This document shows, one piece after another, positions 4,720 to 52,189 of a stretch of 64,000 nucleotides of DNA. A model generated the notes under the pieces. The model was not told where the DNA came from. It worked only from the letters and a program-made list of their open reading frames with translations, and did not search any database. Source of the DNA: Candidatus Saccharimonadales bacterium (lineage in GTDB: Bacteria > Patescibacteriota > Saccharimonadia > Saccharimonadales > JBBQAJ01); assembly GCA_038316195.1 (NCBI GenBank), contig JBBQAJ010000002.1, forward strand, positions 22,773-86,772, given 5' to 3'. Numbering within the stretch: the stretch's first letter is position 1; every line of letters starts with the position of its first letter. The position numbers and the translations under genes are program-made.

Positions 4720-7320
4720 GTGAATAAAGTTTTTAAGAAAGTTCTTGGTGACCCGCAGATTAAAACTTTGCGTCGTATGCGCAAGCGCGTCAAAGATGTA
4801 AATACGCTGGAACCAAAGTATAAAAAACTGACCGACAAGCAATTAAAAGAGCAAACAGATGTTCTTAAAAAACGTTTGGAAAAAGAGTCTATTGATAAGA
4901 TCTTGCCAGATGCTTTTGCCGTTGTTCGAGAAGGTGCAAGACGTACTTTGGGTCAAAGGCATTTTGACGTACAGCTAATTGGTGGAATGGTTTTGCATGA
5001 AGGGAAGGTTGCCGAGATGAAAACTGGGGAGGGAAAAACTCTGGTAGCTACTCTCGCAGTATATTTAAATGGGCTAACTGGAAAAGGCGTACACGTTGTA
5101 ACAGTAAATGATTATTTGGCTAGACGTGACGCTGGCTGGATGGGCGAAGTGTATGATTTTTTGGGTCTTTCAACAGGAGTGATTATTGCTGATGAATCAT
5201 ACATATTTGATTCAAAATTTGAAGATAAAAGCCATGACGACAAACGACTTTGGCATATGAAGCCATGTACCAGACAGGAAGCATACAATGCTGACATTAC
5301 TTATGGCACAAATAATGAGTTTGGTTTTGATTATCTGCGAGACAATATGGTTCGGGAAACTGATCAACTTCGTCAAAGAGAACTTCATTACGCAATCGTA
5401 GATGAAGTGGATTCTATCTTAATAGATGAAGCCAGAACGCCACTTATTATCTCAGCTCCAAGTGTGACCAGTGGTACTGCTTATGCGCAATTTGCTAAGG
5501 TAACGCGTCAATTAAAGAAAGATGAAGATTATGAAACTGATGAAAAACGAAAATCAGTAATATTGACAAATGAAGGCGTGGAACATGTTGAAAAAATATT
5601 GGGTTTAAAAAATCTTTACGGAACGGACAACATTCGAACAATATATCACTTAGAGCAAGCACTCAAAGCCCAAGCAATGTTTCATCGTGATAAAGACTAT
5701 GTTGTCACTCAAGAAGGTGAAGTTGTTATTGTAGATGACTTTACAGGCCGATTACTAAAAGGACGTCGATATAATGAAGGTTTGCATCAGGCAATAGAGG
5801 CAAAAGAAGGTGTAGAAGTTCAAGAAGAGTCCATGACACTGGCAACAATTTCATTTCAAAACTATTTTAGATTATATGAAAAATTATCTGGTATGACAGG
5901 TACTGCTGAAACAGAAAGTGAAGAATTTCACCAAGTTTATGAGCTTGATGTAGTTCAAGTGCCATCTAATAAAATATTGATGCGTGATGATAGAACTGAT
6001 CGCATATATCGTACCGAAGCAGGTAAGTTCAAGGCAATTGTTAGAGAAATAGCTACCTTGCACCACAAGGGTCAGCCAGTATTGCTAGGTACTGTATCGA
6101 TAGAAAAAAACGAAGTGTTAAGTGGTTTGCTAAAAAAAGCAAAAATCCCACATCAAATGTTAAATGCTAAAAACAACGAAAAAGAAGCTAGTATAGTTGC
6201 CAAAGCCGGTCAAAAGGGAGCAGTTACTTTAGCCACAAATATCGCAGGTCGTGGAACAGATATTGTGTTGGATGACGAAACAAAAGCACTTGGTGGACTA
6301 TTTGTGTTAGGTAGCGAAAGGCATGAATCGCGAAGAATAGATAATCAGCTTAGGGGCCGATCAGGTAGGCAAGGTGACCCAGGTGTTACGCAATTTTTTG
6401 TTAGTACGGAAGATGATTTGATGCGTATTTTTGGTGGGGAACGAATCGGCTCAATTATGGATAGACTTGGCGTAGACGACGAAACACCAATTGAAAACAG
6501 AGTAATTAGTAAAAGCCTTGAAGGTGCGCAGAAAAAAGTTGAAGGTTTTAACTTTGATACACGTAAAAACGTTGTTCAGTATGACGACGTTATGAACAGA
6601 CATCGTAAAGCCACCTATACAATGCGCCGAGAAATTCTTTTACACGCAGATATTAAAAAACGAATTGTAGCTTTTTTGGACGACGAAGTAAAAATTTTGG
6701 CCAATAGTCCCTTATTACTTTCAGATAAATATGAATCGATTATAAAAGAAAGTTTTCCATTTGAAGACGACACGCTCGATAGATTGTTTGACTCTGAATC
6801 ATCACAATTCGGTAAAGTTTTAAAAACTGAGGTTCATGATATTTATAAGGCTAGAGAGACTGCATTTACTACTGAAATTATGAGAAAAGTTGAGAGAGAC
6901 ATATATCTTCAAATTCTCGATAACTTATGGATGCAACACCTGGAAAATATGGATCATATGAGGGAGGGTATTCATTGGATAAGCGTTGGTCAAAGAGACC
7001 CTTTGGTTGAGTATCGTCGACAAGGTCAGCATATGTTTGAAGAAATGCAAAAAACATTACGACATGAAGTGGTCCAGGCATTGTTTAGCGCTGAACCCGT
7101 AGATGCCGAAAGGGCAGTCGAAACTGAGTTAACTCGCGCAGCTAGACGCTCAGTTGATAATGCAGATAAAATTCTTGAAGCCGATGAATTTGAAGAAACG
7201 GATTTTGTACCTCTTAAAGCTGCAATGGCAGCTAAAAGTCGCAGTAAAGATAAAATTAAAAAAGCACGTAAACAAGAGCGTCAGCACAAACAAAAAGCCA
7301 AAAACAAGAAGCATAAATAA
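4720..7320 (+). CDS. secA: Preprotein translocase ATPase SecA
   Basis: GTG start with an AAGGGAG SD upstream. Contains MKTGEGKTLVA, DEVDSILIDEARTPLIIS and TNIAGRGTDI. Confidence 0.97.
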   Translation: MNKVFKKVLGDPQIKTLRRMRKRVKDVNTLEPKYKKLTDKQLKEQTDVLKKRLEKESIDKILPDAFAVVREGARRTLGQRHFDVQLIGGMVLHEGKVAEMKTGEGKTLVATLAVYLNGLTGKGVHVVTVNDYLARRDAGWMGEVYDFLGLSTGVIIADESYIFDSKFEDKSHDDKRLWHMKPCTRQEAYNADITYGTNNEFGFDYLRDNMVRETDQLRQRELHYAIVDEVDSILIDEARTPLIISAPSVTSGTAYAQFAKVTRQLKKDEDYETDEKRKSVILTNEGVEHVEKILGLKNLYGTDNIRTIYHLEQALKAQAMFHRDKDYVVTQEGEVVIVDDFTGRLLKGRRYNEGLHQAIEAKEGVEVQEESMTLATISFQNYFRLYEKLSGMTGTAETESEEFHQVYELDVVQVPSNKILMRDDRTDRIYRTEAGKFKAIVREIATLHHKGQPVLLGTVSIEKNEVLSGLLKKAKIPHQMLNAKNNEKEASIVAKAGQKGAVTLATNIAGRGTDIVLDDETKALGGLFVLGSERHESRRIDNQLRGRSGRQGDPGVTQFFVSTEDDLMRIFGGERIGSIMDRLGVDDETPIENRVISKSLEGAQKKVEGFNFDTRKNVVQYDDVMNRHRKATYTMRREILLHADIKKRIVAFLDDEVKILANSPLLLSDKYESIIKESFPFEDDTLDRLFDSESSQFGKVLKTEVHDIYKARETAFTTEIMRKVERDIYLQILDNLWMQHLENMDHMREGIHWISVGQRDPLVEYRRQGQHMFEEMQKTLRHEVVQALFSAEPVDAERAVETELTRAARRSVDNADKILEADEFEETDFVPLKAAMAAKSRSKDKIKKARKQERQHKQKAKNKKHK

Positions 7321-8609
7321 TGCGACATACTGCTAATGAAGTAGCGCTTAAAAATGGGGCTAAAGGGCTATTTATTCACGTTCCTGGTGCCACAGTTATG
7401 AGTATCGAAATTAATTTTAGAGCCGGAGATTTTTTATGCCCACCTGATAAATGGGAAACTGCACATTTAATGGAACACTTGTTATTGGGTGCAAATGAAC
7501 AAATTCCGCGATCAAGAGCATTTCAGGCTGAGTTTGAAAAGAATGGAGCATATTGTAACGCAAGTACGGGTAGTTATGACATAACTTATGAAGCAGAATG
7601 TGCTGATTTTGAGTGGCAACGAATTTCAAATTTGTTATTAGTTGCTATCAGTAAGCCATTATTTTTGGAGGATGAATTTAAAGCAGAATTTGGAAATGTT
7701 CGCGAGGAGATGATGGGACGTTCAAACAATCATTTCCGTCACCTTAGCTTGGCACTTAGACGAAAGTACGGGTATAAAGTTCTAACAGACCAGGAGCGCG
7801 TACAACAAATGAAAAATGTCATGGTGGAGGACATACGTGCCCATTACGTTAAAACCCATTTCACTCGAAATATGCGTTTTGTTGTGGCTGGAAAACTTAC
7901 AACTTCACGACAGCAATCAATTACAGATATGTTGGAAAATATAGCATTACCAATTGGTAAAAGCAGAATAGCTCTTCCAGTAGAGCGGCCTAAAGGACTG
8001 AAAGAGCCCTTATATATTGCCAATAGAACTGTAGAAAACATGTATTTTTATCTTGATACATTTATCAATAGACGATTAAGTGAAGCAGAAGCAGACGCTC
8101 TTGGTTTGGTAAACACTATGCTGACTGAAACTCTACACTCTAGAATTTTGGGTGAAGCTCGTGAAAAGGGCCTAGTCTATAGTATGAGTTCAAACTATCT
8201 GCAGACGAAAAATGCAACAAACTGGTGGTTTGGCACTCAAGTGACTGCTCTTAATGCTCCAGCACTTTTTACTATTATTACAAAAGAAATTTTGGCTGTT
8301 TGCCACGGAGATGTAACCCAAGCAGATATTTCGGCAGCACAACAATATATGTTGGGGAGGTTTCAGAGAAGTGGCCAAACAGTTTCTGGTACGGCATCTG
8401 GATACAGTGGTAGATATTTCTTTGATGATTTTATAGAAGACTATTACCTGGTCCCCGAACGAATTAAAGCTATAACTAAAGAGCAGATTGTAGCCATTAC
8501 AAACGAATTTTTCTCAAAACCTCTTTGGGGAGCTGGATTTTTAGGTGCAGCAAATAAAGACATTAGACAACAACTAATTAACATACTTATGCCTCTTTGG
8601 AACAAGTAA
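7320..8609 (+). CDS. M16 (pitrilysin/insulinase) family zinc peptidase
   Basis: Inverted zinc motif HxxEH (HLMEH). The length (429 aa) is typical of the family. Overlaps secA by TAATG. Confidence 0.8.
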   Translation: MRHTANEVALKNGAKGLFIHVPGATVMSIEINFRAGDFLCPPDKWETAHLMEHLLLGANEQIPRSRAFQAEFEKNGAYCNASTGSYDITYEAECADFEWQRISNLLLVAISKPLFLEDEFKAEFGNVREEMMGRSNNHFRHLSLALRRKYGYKVLTDQERVQQMKNVMVEDIRAHYVKTHFTRNMRFVVAGKLTTSRQQSITDMLENIALPIGKSRIALPVERPKGLKEPLYIANRTVENMYFYLDTFINRRLSEAEADALGLVNTMLTETLHSRILGEAREKGLVYSMSSNYLQTKNATNWWFGTQVTALNAPALFTIITKEILAVCHGDVTQADISAAQQYMLGRFQRSGQTVSGTASGYSGRYFFDDFIEDYYLVPERIKAITKEQIVAITNEFFSKPLWGAGFLGAANKDIRQQLINILMPLWNK

Positions 8610-47820: not shown

Positions 47821-50106
47821 CTATTTTTTAGCGCGACGTACGAATCGTTTCTTTTTATTGGGGGCTTTAGCAATCATTTCTTTGGCCTCTGTCTCGGTAA
47901 TCTTGCTTGCATCTGTAGCTTTTGGTATGCGAGCGTTCTTTTTGCCATCTGTGACATAAGGACCGTATGGACCGTTTACTATGTTAAGACCACCCTTAAA
48001 CTGTGCAATGTATTTATTAGCTTCTTTTTCAAGTTTTTCTGCATACAGTTGCCTCGCTTCTTCTTCAGTAATCTTGAACGGGTCGTGAGGTTTTATAGAT
48101 ACAAATAGCTTATCAACTACTATATATGGACCAAAACGACCGATGTTTGATTTTATATCTTTACCATCTTCGGTTGATCCCACGAGCCGTGGTAGTTTGA
48201 ACATTTCCAATGCTTGATCAAATGTTACATCTTCAAGAGCTATACCATCTGGCATTGGCGCAAAATCAGGTTTTTCATCGCTTTCAGTTTCTCCTCTTTG
48301 TAGCATTGGTCCATAACGCCCATAACGAGCAATTATTGGCTTGCCGTTTTTTGGGTCATCTCCCAATTTGCGTGCCTGACTTGTTTCTTCCCTGCTCACA
48401 TTCGCTGAATCTTCGACCAATGGATGAAATTCTTTATAAAAATCTGTCAACATTTTTTCCCATGATTCTTTGCCGTCAGCAATATCATCAAATTCTTGTT
48501 CTACTTTGGCAGTGAAATCATAGTCTAGTACTTTTCCAAAATGTTTGACTAAAAAGTCAGTAGTTACGCTTGCAACAGATGTCGGAAGAAGTTTATTTTT
48601 GTCTGCCCCAACAGTAATTGTTGATTCGCTTGGTTTAATCTCAGAATTATCAAGTTCTAGAACTTTGATTTTACGTTCAATTCCTTCCAGGTCGGCTTTT
48701 TCTACATATTCACGGGATTGAATGGTACTAATGGTAGGCGCGTAAGTACTGGGCCTACCAATACCAAGTTCTTCCAGCTTTTTAACCAAACTTGCTTCAC
48801 TGTAGCGTGACGGTGGACGGTTGAATGTTTCCGTTGCTGTTATAGTTTTTCTTTCCAGAGTTTGGCCGTCCTTTAATGGAGGTAAAATAACGTCGTCCTT
48901 ACCACCTCCATAAACTTTGAAAAAACCATCAAATTTTAATATTTCTCCCTTGGCAATAAATTCCTCAGTTCGATTGCTCATGGCTATGCTTATTTCTGTT
49001 CGGTCTACTTCTGCAGGAGTCATTTGACTTGCAAGTGCTCTTCGCCAAATTAAGCCATAAAGTTTCTTTTGTTGTTCGTCTGTGCCAGAACTTAGTTTAG
49101 AAAAATTGGTAGGTCTTATAGCTTCGTGTGCTTCCTGAGCGTTTGTGTTTTTAGTTTTATATTGCCTGACCTGCCAATAATTCTCTCCATATTCTTTTTT
49201 TATAAATTCTTCAGCAAATTTTATAGCCTGACCGGACAATATAGTACTATCGGTTCGCATATAGGTGATGTCGCCATTTTCATATAGTCGTTGTGCTAGA
49301 GTCATAGTCTGACGAACGCCAAATCCCAATTTGCGAGATGCTTCTTGTTGAAGTGTACTTGTAGTAAATGGTGCTGAAGGATTCCGGCTGCCTGGTTTTT
49401 TATCAATGCTTGAAATTTTAAAACTAGCAAGCTTTGATTCATTTAAGAATTTTTCAGCAATTTGCATATTATCTAACCTGATACCTAGCTCGGCACCAAA
49501 ATCTTCGCCATCACCAGTAAATACGCCTGTTATTTTATAATTACTTGCAACTGAAAAGTCCTTAATTTCCCTCTCACGCTCTACAATCAATCGTACTGCT
49601 ACGGACTGAACACGTCCAGCCGATAACCCTGGTCGAACTTTTTTCCAAAGCACAGGGCTTAGTTCATAACCAACTAATCGATCCAATATTCTCCTAGCTT
49701 GTTGTGCGTCAACTAGTTTAGTGTCAACGGTTCGTGGATTTTTTACAGCTGACTCTATTGCTGATTTTGTAATTTCATGAAAAACAATTCGTTTAGTCTC
49801 AGATGGTTTTAGACCCAAGGCTTCACATAAATGCCAGGCAATTGCCTCTCCTTCTCGATCTTCATCACTTGCCAGCCATACTGTTGCACCTTTTGCAGCG
49901 TTTTTGAGCTCCCTGACAACTTTAGCTTTGTCGTCCGGTACTGCATATGTGGGTGCAAAATTATTCCCTATATCAATATTCAAGCCTTTTTTAGGCAAAT
50001 CACGTATATGCCCGTAGCTACTTTTTACTGAATAGTCTTTGCCTAGAAATTTCTCAATCGTCTTTGCTTTTGCTGGAGACTCAACTATTACTAAATTTTT
50101 CGCCAT
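47821..50106 (-). CDS. topA: DNA topoisomerase I
   Basis: Toprim N-terminus (LVIVESPAKAKTIEKFLG, SDEDREGE), the catalytic Tyr region (ITYMRTDS) and a basic C-terminus. Confidence 0.96.
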   Translation of the reverse strand: MAKNLVIVESPAKAKTIEKFLGKDYSVKSSYGHIRDLPKKGLNIDIGNNFAPTYAVPDDKAKVVRELKNAAKGATVWLASDEDREGEAIAWHLCEALGLKPSETKRIVFHEITKSAIESAVKNPRTVDTKLVDAQQARRILDRLVGYELSPVLWKKVRPGLSAGRVQSVAVRLIVEREREIKDFSVASNYKITGVFTGDGEDFGAELGIRLDNMQIAEKFLNESKLASFKISSIDKKPGSRNPSAPFTTSTLQQEASRKLGFGVRQTMTLAQRLYENGDITYMRTDSTILSGQAIKFAEEFIKKEYGENYWQVRQYKTKNTNAQEAHEAIRPTNFSKLSSGTDEQQKKLYGLIWRRALASQMTPAEVDRTEISIAMSNRTEEFIAKGEILKFDGFFKVYGGGKDDVILPPLKDGQTLERKTITATETFNRPPSRYSEASLVKKLEELGIGRPSTYAPTISTIQSREYVEKADLEGIERKIKVLELDNSEIKPSESTITVGADKNKLLPTSVASVTTDFLVKHFGKVLDYDFTAKVEQEFDDIADGKESWEKMLTDFYKEFHPLVEDSANVSREETSQARKLGDDPKNGKPIIARYGRYGPMLQRGETESDEKPDFAPMPDGIALEDVTFDQALEMFKLPRLVGSTEDGKDIKSNIGRFGPYIVVDKLFVSIKPHDPFKITEEEARQLYAEKLEKEANKYIAQFKGGLNIVNGPYGPYVTDGKKNARIPKATDASKITETEAKEMIAKAPNKKKRFVRRAKK

Positions 50107-50264: not shown

Positions 50265-50435
50265 TTATAGGTTTGAGATTTTGTATCCACCGTAGATTCC
50301 AGCAAATGAGCCTATTGTACCTAAGAAAATTGTCCAAAAACCAAAACCATTACCGTGATCTAAGGCCGTTCCTAGTAATCCTCCGATAGTTGATCCTATA
50401 AAAATTCCTAAATATATCAAGTGTTTAGTTTCCAT
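50265..50435 (-). CDS. Small glycine-zipper membrane protein (56 aa); below the ORF-track cutoff
   Basis: Hand translation gives METKHLIYLGIFIGSTIGGLLGTALDHGNGFGFWTIFLGTIGSFAGIYGGYKISNL, which forms two TM-like G-rich helices. Confidence 0.45.
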   Translation of the reverse strand: METKHLIYLGIFIGSTIGGLLGTALDHGNGFGFWTIFLGTIGSFAGIYGGYKISNL

Positions 50436-50555
50436 GACTTTATTTTACATTAGTTTTCTCAACTTTTTTGACAGCAATCTTTTTAATGGTAGAGCGAGAA
50501 ACAATAATTATTTAATTAGCAGTATTGGTAAAAAAGTCCAACATATTATAAGGTA

Positions 50556-50584
50556 TTGACATAATGTAATGAATTTGCTAAAAT
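50556..50584 (+). promoter_or_regulatory. Near-consensus sigma-70 promoter driving the ncRNA candidate
   Basis: TTGACA (50556-50561), a 17-nt spacer ending in TGc, then TAAAAT (50579-50584). Confidence 0.6.
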
Positions 50585-50590
50585 AGCAAT

Positions 50591-50948
50591 CCTAAGTCCC
50601 GATATAAAGGAACTTACGTACCTTATACCCAATTCTAACTATCCCGAGAAATCGGGTTAAATTGTTAGATTGTTTTAGAGCTTAGATACAAAGTTGTTAC
50701 CCTCCACTTTTTATTCTTTGCCTACTCTTTTGGGGTGGGCGGCTCTAAAACAAACTAACCCCTTTAAACTCCCAATTCATAAGCGAGTCCGCAAGATTCC
50801 TGCAATTTGCAGGAAGCACGTGTCCGTAGGCACTCTCTTAGACATCGATGCTTCGCGGGTGGGTTTGAAGGGTTAAATTGGTCCATGACTCGTTCGTGGA
50901 CAAAAAGGTCTCTAGCGGTGCCCACCCCCTCTAGAGGCCTTTTTGTTT
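50591..50948 (+). ncRNA. Candidate structured non-coding RNA (~350 nt); class unassigned
   Basis: The interval is promoter-to-terminator with no credible ORF.
- Local hairpins: CCCGA-GAAA-TCGGG at 50643-50656, CCTGCA-ATT-TGCAGG at 50799-50813, GTGTC-CGTA-GGCAC at 50820-50833, and an 8-bp stem at 50881-50901.
- Long-range complementarity: GGGGTGGGC (50732-50740) with GCCCACCCC (50920-50928), and AACCCCTTTAAAC (50757-50769) with GTTTGAAGGGTT (50863-50874). Confidence 0.45.
50902..50948. terminator. Bidirectional rho-independent terminator (ncRNA candidate on the + strand, pth on the - strand)
   Basis: AGGTCTCTAG (50906-50915) pairs with CTAGAGGCCT (50931-50940). The hairpin is flanked by AAAAA upstream and TTTTTGTTT downstream. 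Confidence 0.75.
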
Positions 50949-51006
50949 AAAATTTGGTCTTCTATCAGTAATGATATGATTGACCAGGGTTTGCCGTAAT
51001 CTTAAA

Positions 51007-51645
51007 TCATACCAGAAAGGTACGTGTTTCACTGGGTAGAGTTCCGCCATGAATGAATTCGGTAATAATTGAAGTCGTTTCTTGTAGCAGATTTTTTATC
51101 TGACTTAGTTCTTTTTCGGTAAATTTGGCTAATACGAAATCTGCACTATCTATTGCAGGAGGCGTTTTGGGCCCTAGCCCAATACGAATTCTGCCAAAGC
51201 CTTCGCCAATATTTTGCACTAGCGATTTAATGCCGTTATGGCCAGCATCTGAGCCACCCAATCGTGTACGAATTTGTCCAAAAACTAAGTCTAATTCGTC
51301 ATGAACAACTACAATGTTTTGTGGTTCTATTTTATAAAAATGTGACATTGCCTGAACGGCATCGCCACTGTTGTTCATAAAGGTAGTTGGTTTGCATAAT
51401 ATTACTCTGGAATCGCCTATATTCCCTGATGCAACGATGCTTTTTAGGTCTTTTTTAACTGCCCAATCGTTAATATTTTGACTTTTTGCTAGAGCTTCTA
51501 TGCAATCAAACCCGATATTATGTCGAGTTCCAGTGTATTTTTTGCCAATGTTCCCTAGTCCGACAATCAGTATCGATTTATGTAATCCCAAACTATAAAT
51601 TGGCATACTGCTTCCTGCGTCAGGTTTTTTTTGAAATAGTGCCAT
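51007..51645 (-). CDS. pth: Peptidyl-tRNA hydrolase
   Basis: LIVGLGNIGKKYTGTRHNIGF and GHNGIKS. The internal Met (MPIYS...) is a possible alternative start. Confidence 0.93.
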   Translation of the reverse strand: MALFQKKPDAGSSMPIYSLGLHKSILIVGLGNIGKKYTGTRHNIGFDCIEALAKSQNINDWAVKKDLKSIVASGNIGDSRVILCKPTTFMNNSGDAVQAMSHFYKIEPQNIVVVHDELDLVFGQIRTRLGGSDAGHNGIKSLVQNIGEGFGRIRIGLGPKTPPAIDSADFVLAKFTEKELSQIKNLLQETTSIITEFIHGGTLPSETRTFLV

Positions 51646-51721: not shown

Positions 51722-52189
51722 ATGTCGATGAATGCAAGTAGAAATTTTGAAATCGTAACACCACTCGTGACTGAACTAAGCGTAGAGCAATTGCGTATGC
51801 CAAATCCTGGCGAAGTTATATTGGCTCACGGAGTTGTAATGGAGTTGGGTAGACGTGTGATACTGGGTAGACTGGAGCTTGCTTTGGAATCCTCAGCATT
51901 CGTAGGGTCTCATACGCCATGGCACTACGACTCCATTCATACTCAAGGACATTTTACAGATTTGGGAGAGCTTGGTGTAAAACTTGCCGGAATTAGGGGA
52001 GCGTTACCAGATCGTAATCAAGTACGAAATTTGATTGATGAGCTTGACGAGGCTGCAATAGATTTAAATGTTGCTAAGGGAGATTTGCTTGTGTTTGGCG
52101 GCAATAGATCAGAAGTACCTATACTTCATGATGTTCAAACGAAAATTGAACCTAGGAAGTCTTATTTTTCAGTAATACAAATAAAATAA
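51722..52189 (+). CDS. Hypothetical protein (155 aa), weakly cupin/2OG-oxygenase-like
   Basis: WHYD (an HxD element) and a distal GDLLVFGG...ILHDV. The protein is short for a full DSBH fold, so this is tentative. Confidence 0.3.
   Translation: MSMNASRNFEIVTPLVTELSVEQLRMPNPGEVILAHGVVMELGRRVILGRLELALESSAFVGSHTPWHYDSIHTQGHFTDLGELGVKLAGIRGALPDRNQVRNLIDELDEAAIDLNVAKGDLLVFGGNRSEVPILHDVQTKIEPRKSYFSVIQIK

Follow-up and report, generated by a model that had tools for sequence, protein, structure and literature searches.

A conserved structured RNA gene convergent with pth in Saccharimonadia, and a terminator-loop hairpin shared with phages

The DNA analysed here (hereafter 'the window') is a 64,000-nucleotide (nt) stretch of contig JBBQAJ010000002.1, from the Candidatus Saccharimonadales bacterium assembly GCA_038316195.1. 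Towards its far end a gap of 570 base pairs (bp) separates a 56-amino-acid (aa) membrane-protein open reading frame (ORF; 50265-50435, minus strand) from the gene for Pth (pth; 51007-51645, minus strand), and it is within this gap, reading in the opposite direction to both of its neighbours, that we find the gene for a structured RNA. The original prediction for this locus, made from the letters of the window, described a structured transcript of ~350 nt, running from promoter to terminator and belonging to no known class; a description that holds, as the element is conserved end to end in relatives and its base pairs covary above both sets of controls. We regard it as almost certain that positions 50589-50948 of the plus strand constitute a genuine non-coding RNA (ncRNA) gene and, with good though lesser confidence, that the RNA represents a new family.

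At the upstream end lies a near-consensus promoter (50556-50584, TTGACA-17(TGc)-TAAAAT), as originally read, which scores 11 out of 12 in a consensus scan and is kept in homologues: the 17-nt spacer in 65 of 70, the TGC in 66 and a −10 hexamer of either TAAAAT or TAGAAT in 53. At the downstream end, the GC-rich, bidirectional terminator with its U-tract likewise stands; its 14-bp stem is 95% paired across the alignment described below, with both partners changing in 10 of the 13 pairs counted. A consensus terminator scanner skipped this terminator, having a loop limit of 8 nt as compared with the 15-nt loop found here. Since pth converges upon it, the terminator can serve both strands. Between these two signals GC content is raised, as had also been remarked (0.48, against ~0.3-0.4 nearby), and the plus strand folds with a predicted energy of −128 kcal/mol (z = −6.9 relative to shuffled sequences; minus strand, z = −4.1). 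The RNA is predicted to be strongly transcribed.

Relatives of Pth place the organism in the Saccharibacteria, class Saccharimonadia, and 61 pth loci were compared. An nhmmer search with positions 50540-50960 of the window finds the RNA in 54 of these, 43 end to end (from promoter to terminator) and 11 in part; every match lies downstream of pth and on the strand opposite to it. As to the seven loci lacking a match, three end at or inside pth and one has only ~600 nt of downstream flank; the others are a Dependentiae genome, a locus with a Pth only 33% identical, and L043, where nhmmer does not find the RNA despite ~1.7 kb of flank. Three pth loci labelled as Saccharibacteria and having some downstream flank (L043, L059—the locus with the 33% identical Pth—and L024) hold no RNA in the DNA compared, and possibly mark lineage boundaries or rearrangements. 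An exact scan with the 15-nt terminator loop recovers approximately 20 more full-length copies from metagenome contigs, the other matches being chance occurrences in GC-rich coding DNA. Altogether, there are 69 unique full-length homologues, ranging from 298 to 558 nt.

Covariation was counted over 55 pairs in seven helices (those returned by RNAalifold together with helices read from conserved blocks), using a MAFFT alignment of 44 sequences, in which RNAalifold itself recovers three helices with many compensatory changes. Standard pairs occupy 93.1% of cells, a share that drops to 32-57% in controls made by sliding the 3' partner one to three columns; the covariation score is 0.29, compared with no more than 0.086 in the slid controls. 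Covariation in homologous intergenic regions, which the original prediction had put forward as a check, is seen as change on both sides in 33 of the 55 pairs, a number reached by 0 of 500 shuffles; indeed, none of the five covariation measures is attained by any of the 500. A mutual-information scan over all 69 sequences places its top pairs in the same helices, and adds a further hairpin (P7c). That said, MAFFT misaligns the variable hairpins, and the figures for P1, P2 and P7 are accordingly less secure than those for P3, P5, P6 and the terminator. The alignment also speaks to polarity: 41 of the 44 sequences retain, within P5, a U-G pair that on the opposite strand would be an A-C mismatch, so that the G-U pairs identify the plus strand as the RNA strand; the fold energies given above favour the same strand. 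Reading from 5' to 3', all on the plus strand, the features are as follows.

50556-50561, plus strand: −35 hexamer TTGACA (consensus scan), kept in 60 of 70 homologues
50576-50584, plus strand: extended −10 element, TGC then TAAAAT, after a 17-nt spacer (consensus scan)
50589-50948, plus strand: predicted RNA of ~360 nt; 5' end placed from the promoter and uncertain (50589-50593), 3' end in the U-tract
50593-50616, plus strand: P1, a 5' hairpin with a UAAG.../...CUUA base and variable top; 82% paired, the weakest helix in the MAFFT alignment
50618-50630, plus strand: CS1, the invariant single strand GUACCUUAUACCC (consensus G-ACCUU--A, then a run of C), from invariant alignment columns
50633-50656, plus strand: UUCUAAC (50633-50639), then a GAAA-loop hairpin in a variable insertion (50643-50656), from the alignment
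50664-50681, plus strand: 5' strand of P3, GUUAGAUUGUUUUAGAGC, pairing with 50742-50759
50690-50710, plus strand: P4 hairpin, with loop UGUUACCCUCC (50695-50705) and a covarying stem
50720-50740, plus strand: variable junction hairpin containing GGGGTGGGC, its sequence unconserved in homologues
50742-50759, plus strand: 3' strand of P3, GCUCUAAAACAAACUAAC (covariation count)
50760-50769, plus strand: 5' strand of P5, CCCUUUAAAC, with a covarying inner pair
50782-50857, plus strand: domain closed by P6, AGCGAG (50782-50787) with UUCGCG (50852-50857)
50787-50797, 50798-50815 and 50816-50851, plus strand: hairpins P7a, P7b and P7c, inside P6
50857-50862, plus strand: G-tract GGGUGG, candidate partner for CCCACC of the terminator loop
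50863-50872, plus strand: 3' strand of P5, GUUUGAAGGG, partner of 50760-50769
50881-50901, plus strand: optional hairpin before the terminator, in about half of homologues
50902-50948, plus strand: intrinsic terminator, arms 50902-50915 and 50931-50944 forming the 14-bp stem, 15-nt loop CGGUGCCCACCCCCU at 50916-50930, U-tract to ~50948

The mutual-information scan finds no covarying partner for CS1. The UUCUAAC that follows is present in most homologues, the GAAA-loop hairpin being missing or different in many; UUCUAAC could instead take GUUAGA as its partner, in competition with the base of P3; double compensatory changes in homologue L048 favour the P3 register. P3 is an 18-bp helix interrupted by one A.A mismatch, 96% paired and with both-sided change in 13 of 17 pairs; it is capped by a three-way junction that holds P4 and the variable hairpin at 50720-50740. 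P5, 98% paired, corresponds to the long-range complementarity between AACCCCTTTAAAC and GTTTGAAGGGTT proposed in the original prediction, and carries the compensatory changes expected of a real helix, with AAC/GUU swapping to AAG/CUU or AAA/UUU. Inside it, P6 changes on both sides in five of its six pairs; P7c pairs are among the top pairs by mutual information, and covariation in P7a is visible in the alignment. The optional hairpin gives the distance between P5 and the terminator loop two modes: 17-19 nt when it is missing and 44-85 nt when it is present.

The original prediction thus fares well in its outline—an RNA gene, its promoter and terminator, the local hairpins and the P5 pairing—and fails on one point. 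The other long-range complementarity, between GGGGTGGGC (50732-50740) and the terminator loop, and with it the suggested pseudoknot, is found in the window only; its 5' partner sits within the variable junction hairpin, which is unconserved. All four of the local hairpins named are present in the fold of the window, with some qualification as to their generality: those at 50799-50813 and 50820-50833 belong to a domain that is variable in sequence yet structurally conserved, whereas that at 50643-50656 is part of the insertion which many homologues lack and that at 50881-50901 is the optional hairpin, seen in about half. Two sequence likenesses concern P3: one strand, GUUUUAGAGC, reads the same as the first letters of type II-A CRISPR repeats, and the partner strand, CGCUCUAAAACAA, resembles rrn boxA (UGCUCUUUAACAA) but is base-paired here (50664-50681 / 50742-50759). 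We judge both of these, together with a likeness of the terminator loop to nt 17-40 of Escherichia coli 5S rRNA, to be coincidence, no supporting feature having proved positive.

Set against this covarying framework are four short invariant single strands: G-ACCUU--A of CS1, UACCCUCC in the loop of P4, GGUGG (considered below) and the terminator loop, CGGUGCCCACCCCCU; CCUUUAA in P5 is invariant too. The P4-loop sequence TACCCTCC is invariant in homologues; its UACCCUCC portion is anti-Shine-Dalgarno-like, the exact complement of a GGAGGGUA Shine-Dalgarno (SD) region. A scan of viral contigs with the P4-loop 15-mer, GTTGTTACCCTCCAC, returns mostly the antisense of a ribosome-binding site (RBS), GUGGAGGGUAACAAC-UG-AUG, and not homologues of the RNA; the P4 loop is, in other words, fully complementary to an RBS of this type. 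Such matches occur in one family of viral contigs (L268-L323, e.g. L268, L270, L271 and L276), lying antisense to a strongly conserved RBS, GUGGAGGGUAACAAC-UG-AUGGC.

The 13-mer of the terminator loop, GGTGCCCACCCCC, is found in 54 of the 54 pth loci that hold the RNA, and the sole variation in the loop is a change of its first base from C to U, in 7 of 53 host copies. RNAalifold models the loop as itself structured, with G-C, G-C, a bulged U and G-C closing a CCCACC hexaloop. Just 5' of the 3' strand of P5 a GGUGG is present in 62 of 66 homologues, and is a candidate for a conserved alternative partner of the CCCACC; both sides are invariant, making covariation uninformative here. In the most divergent homologues (L052 and L053) the GGUGG is gone and the loop is kept.

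The RNA matches no known family that we could find. At gathering score, Rfam 15 returns only a tRNA-Glu, elsewhere in the window; ARAGORN likewise reports only tRNA-Glu, and no tmRNA, ordinary or permuted. A permissive Rfam 15 search (E≤10) of positions 50400-51050 yields noise and one terminator look-alike (sau-19, at 25.6 bits where the threshold is 80), and for nine homologues nothing but microRNA models, which match the long stem of P3. The original prediction had seen no convincing tmRNA, RNase P RNA or signal recognition particle (SRP) RNA, and these same searches (Rfam 15 at E≤10 on the window and nine homologues, and ARAGORN) bear it out. Taking the candidates individually, RNase P RNA (RF00010/RF00011) gives no match at E≤10, and its CR-I (GAGGAAAGUCC) and CR-V (ACAGAA..GGCUUA) motifs are absent from the 44-sequence consensus. 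For tmRNA, ARAGORN and Rfam are negative, and there is no T-arm with CCA, no tag reading frame and no conserved ORF. For SRP RNA there is neither an Rfam match nor a domain IV with its symmetric and asymmetric loops and GNRA apical loop, the sole GNRA hairpin (50643-50656) being in the non-conserved insertion. 6S RNA, again without a match at E≤10, is a rod with a central bubble, and the fold supported here is branched. Anti-SD small RNAs (sRNAs) of the RsaE/RoxS kind pair with SD regions of defined targets through C-rich loops; loops rich in C are present here, without a match to an Rfam model or an extended target in the 64-kb window. We found no description of the RNA or its loop hairpin in the searchable literature or in Rfam 15; the full loop sequence occurs in no paper found, and the four papers containing only a shorter 11-mer, GTGCCCACCCC, are irrelevant.

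Nor does the locus appear to code for protein. The only candidate is a 60-codon ORF with a TTG start (50694-50876), which, as the original prediction had noted, lacks an SD sequence, and the frame of which is unconserved. A stop codon interrupts this frame no further than 4-20 codons from the anchor in 54 of the 69 unique homologues, and no further than 4-30 codons from it in 59; the longest sense ORF per homologue has a median length of 40 aa and no consistent location, and no conserved ORF is found among the 69. Substitutions preserve base pairs rather than codons and, for all that a 60-codon frame does exist in the window, we find a small-protein explanation scarcely credible.

In its usual setting the RNA lies in the order der, pth, RNA, dprA, topA, with all four protein genes on the opposite strand; across 73 loci, pth is a neighbour in 64, dprA in 58 and topA in 50. 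Since every one of these flanking genes is on the other strand, the RNA is an independent gene and not a leader: pth, the gene downstream of it, is as poorly placed to be regulated as a riboswitch or cis-leader target as are the other conserved neighbours. A promoter and terminator of its own, conserved along with the RNA, and compensatory substitutions above controls, are the marks of an independent ncRNA gene, and the locus shows both. Two local departures from the usual order are seen in the window. In this part of the sequence (50265-50435 and 47821-50106, minus strand) the dprA gene that lies between RNA and topA in most relatives is missing, its position being taken only by the 56-aa ORF, which encodes a glycine-rich membrane protein. 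In addition, a 155-aa ORF just past pth (51722-52189, plus strand) has a homologue in only two of the 73 related loci, and looks like a lineage-specific insertion.

The terminator-loop hairpin is not confined to the bacterial RNA. The loop 15-mer occurs 87 times in IMG/VR contigs, and in 51 of these the letters directly to either side form a stem 5 bp or longer (in most cases 7-18 bp), where chance would give ~0.6 for a 5-bp stem; only ~5 hairpins are found among the 96 metagenome matches that do not carry the RNA. The contigs concerned are IMG/VR L182-L267 (e.g. L185:2323-2356, L207, L214 and L258). In the 43 examples left after removal of redundancy, the loop is identical and the pair that closes it is always G-C; their stems, 5-18 bp long, are unrelated. 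Each locus, in phage and host alike, has exactly one such hairpin, with no degenerate copies; those of phages are intergenic, and their C-rich loop is carried by the sense strand of the neighbouring genes. Nine related phages place the hairpin between the same 80-aa and ~270-aa ORFs but build it from different compensating stems, which argues that selection acts on the hairpin as RNA and not on a site in the DNA.

Some of these hairpins come right behind the gene for a major head protein; others precede large-terminase genes by 12-24 nt, stand in front of acidic scaffold-like proteins, separate phage tRNA genes or directly follow −10-like elements, and so lie at the 5' end of a transcript; a U-tract follows about ten of them. 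In one contig (L257:3497-3526) a −10-like element, the loop hairpin and a U-tract stand in direct succession, predicting a hairpin-only transcript of ~40 nt that is possibly a phage-encoded decoy. Beside the phage hairpins we find no GGUGGG nearby, and no other module of the RNA in the phage loci. Rfam, run on 18 hairpin-bearing phage loci, returns one tRNA only and no family for the hairpin.

As to the phages themselves, 43 of 47 hairpin loci are linked through shared proteins by single linkage. Their large terminase has cultured-phage relatives only ~25% identical, the scaffold-like protein has none that we found, and PHROGs names only the head and terminase proteins. One provirus-like contig, L254 (IMGVR_UViG_3300049064_000004), carries at one end the full RNA with its promoter (8003-8368, plus strand) and a second loop hairpin (6850-6890, minus strand) ~185 nt upstream of an operon of RecT-like, FtsK-like and methyltransferase genes, the two hairpins thus being inverted and 1.4 kb apart. 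In the hairpin-bearing phage L194 (9289-9807), a 172-aa protein matches, at up to 60% identity, the N-terminal portion of a transposase-like gene of IS1595 type that lies next to the RNA locus in several Saccharibacteria genomes (L055:5527-6444, L005:1629-2039 and L022:7347-8123); the likeness suggests, though weakly, that phage and host draw on a common pool of genes.

Amongst described systems, the closest in kind are the orphan RNAs OLE, raiA, ROOL, GOLLD and HEARO: stand-alone transcripts of several hundred nt, each confined to one lineage, with many covarying helices, invariant single-stranded nucleotides and a genomic context that is uninformative as to function. A connection with phages is also known for ROOL and GOLLD (PMC12286853). 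The RNA described here differs in having no sequence or structure match in Rfam 15, in being smaller than OLE, ROOL and GOLLD and in having only one hairpin module in common with phages rather than the whole RNA. A second likeness is to Firmicutes sRNAs of the RsaE/RoxS and FsrA type, which target SD sequences through C-rich loops; these too are transcribed from their own promoter to their own terminator, with C-rich motifs in hairpin loops that include that of the terminator. The UACCCUCC loop is a perfect complement of an SD sequence, and its complement is seen as an RBS in the viral contigs described above. Our RNA is, however, three to four times longer than these sRNAs, with a large covarying scaffold and no Rfam match, and its invariance extends over 13-15 nt, far beyond the needs of SD pairing, with no target found in the 64-kb window.

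For the phage hairpins the parallel is with elements that phages copy or exploit from their hosts, such as boxB/nut and put hairpins or the pseudo-ToxI antitoxin mimics. Shared features are a short hairpin with fixed loop and free stem, an intergenic or promoter-proximal position in phage transcripts, and a host RNA bearing the same element. The differences are a 15-nt loop identical over diverse phages and a whole bacterial class, and the restriction to one copy per genome segment; for the hairpins described here, protein binding and antitermination would be putative.

What, then, might the RNA be, if not a new family? The alternative to which we give most weight, though still an unlikely one, is that we are looking at a far-diverged form of a universal bacterial RNA, which current models miss in bacteria of the Candidate Phyla Radiation (CPR), with 6S RNA the most plausible and RNase P RNA, tmRNA and SRP RNA less so. 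A single-copy, lineage-wide RNA with a strong promoter is what one would expect of a housekeeping RNA, and with its length (300-470 nt) it would not be out of place among RNase P RNAs and tmRNAs, which are similarly long (300-450 nt) and likewise conserved in reduced genomes. 6S RNA (SsrS) also has a sigma-70 promoter, a terminator and a structure conserved across its lineage, and is abundant, as our RNA probably is from its promoter; 6S RNAs have, in addition, low sequence conservation and are often missed by models. Against this, no Rfam model of these families answers, at E≤10, to the window or to nine homologues, ARAGORN is negative, and the consensus is without the P4 and CR-I/CR-V motifs of RNase P RNA, the tRNA-like T-arm domain, CCA end and tag ORF of tmRNA, or SRP domain IV. 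6S RNA is a long irregular hairpin of ~180-200 nt, with a central bubble that mimics an open promoter and binds the sigma-70 holoenzyme; the RNA seen here is about twice that length and is branched, having a three-way junction and a multi-hairpin domain in place of a rod with its bubble.

Explanations in which the sequence serves its surroundings fare worse still. The 3' hairpin, or the whole RNA gene, might be a phage or mobile feature—an attachment (att) or packaging (pac) site shared with the chromosome, in the manner of tRNA and tmRNA targets—and here there is exactly one loop hairpin per host locus and per phage locus, with inverted repeats around a conserved core, the arrangement found in tRNA-type att sites, often near terminase and head genes; in the provirus-like L254, phage genes lie beside the RNA. 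Yet in the nine related phages the two genes that border the hairpin are the same throughout, neither of them an integrase gene, and the stems differ in a compensating way; the C-rich loop invariably lies in the sense strand of the genes beside it; and in L254, the only contig with two copies, these are inverted rather than direct repeats around a prophage. There is no integrase among the ORFs of L254, phage hairpins lie between structural or packaging genes, and the RNA itself is syntenic and conserved across the class, with none of its other modules in phage loci; we think a mobile feature distinctly improbable. Slightly less probable again is that the sequence acts in cis on its neighbours, whether by interference with pth or the divergent dprA-topA promoter, or as a shared bidirectional terminator and regulatory region. 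Its fixed position beside pth and dprA (the 64 and 58 of 73 loci given above), and a terminator hairpin that ends pth as well, are what this would predict; but the transcript overlaps the coding sequence of neither gene, the RNA is unchanged in loci with an extra gene between it and pth, is kept in the window despite the missing dprA, and stands in a different context in L254. More than 50 covarying pairs, and invariant loops, over ~350 nt also exceed anything that a terminator or promoter would need. Taken as a whole, a stand-alone structured ncRNA of the Saccharimonadia, of an uncatalogued family and with a housekeeping or regulatory role, is in our estimation the best explanation and a reasonably probable one.

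How might such an RNA work? We envisage the covarying helices as a scaffold, and the invariant and mostly C-rich single strands as a functional surface that this would display. The RNA would act in trans, offering its C-rich elements to a conserved cellular partner; either a protein or a G-rich RNA, for instance SD regions, for which the P4 loop would be a perfect mimic of the anti-SD sequence. The 3' hairpin might then have two jobs, terminating and protecting the transcript on the one hand and serving as a portable recognition module on the other, of which phages, probably those of the same hosts, would carry one copy, intergenically and on the sense strand; this suggests that the phages engage the same partner as the host RNA. 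The loop is invariant even where there is no G-tract in cis, in the divergent homologues and in the phage hairpins, making an external partner common to host and phage the most likely reason for its conservation. That the RNA acts in trans through its invariant loops we consider a real possibility, falling somewhat short of probable. More tentative, and on balance rather unlikely in its full form, is the proposal that the RNA is a hitherto unrecognised housekeeping ribonucleoprotein or regulatory RNA whose invariant 3' hairpin, with the CCCACC apical loop in CGGUGCCCACCCCCU, is a docking site for a conserved factor, and that phages of these ultra-small epibionts have copied it into late/structural and tiny stand-alone transcripts to recruit or titrate that factor.

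Several observations weigh against these readings, or temper them. Mutual information reveals no tertiary partners, and the invariant elements carry no variation, leaving covariation silent on their pairing. For CS1, the P4 loop and the terminator loop alike, no complementary site is found elsewhere in the 64-kb window, and none recurs across the phage loci. The metagenome copies, having been retrieved via the exact loop, are no test of its invariance; that test is provided by the 54 pth-anchored loci. Both ends of the RNA are predicted from sequence signals, and the assignment of the hairpin phages to Saccharibacteria hosts is indirect, by way of L254, shared proteins and the IS1595-like gene.

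Current genome annotation pipelines leave this RNA gene blank. Saccharibacteria have genomes of ~1 Mb, in which an idle extra conserved gene is unlikely; an RNA whose promoter, fold and invariant loops are kept across the class therefore probably belongs to the core physiology of a lineage with an RNA biology that is almost unstudied. Large bacterial RNAs that still await a function are few, and this would be one more; it is directly testable in the few Saccharibacteria that are cultivable and genetically tractable. The 15-nt loop, common to the host RNA and to dozens of phage hairpins, provides a functional handle, and may serve as a marker linking uncultured phages to CPR hosts. If true, the docking-hairpin proposal would mean that host and phage share an RNA recognition code within the Candidate Phyla Radiation.

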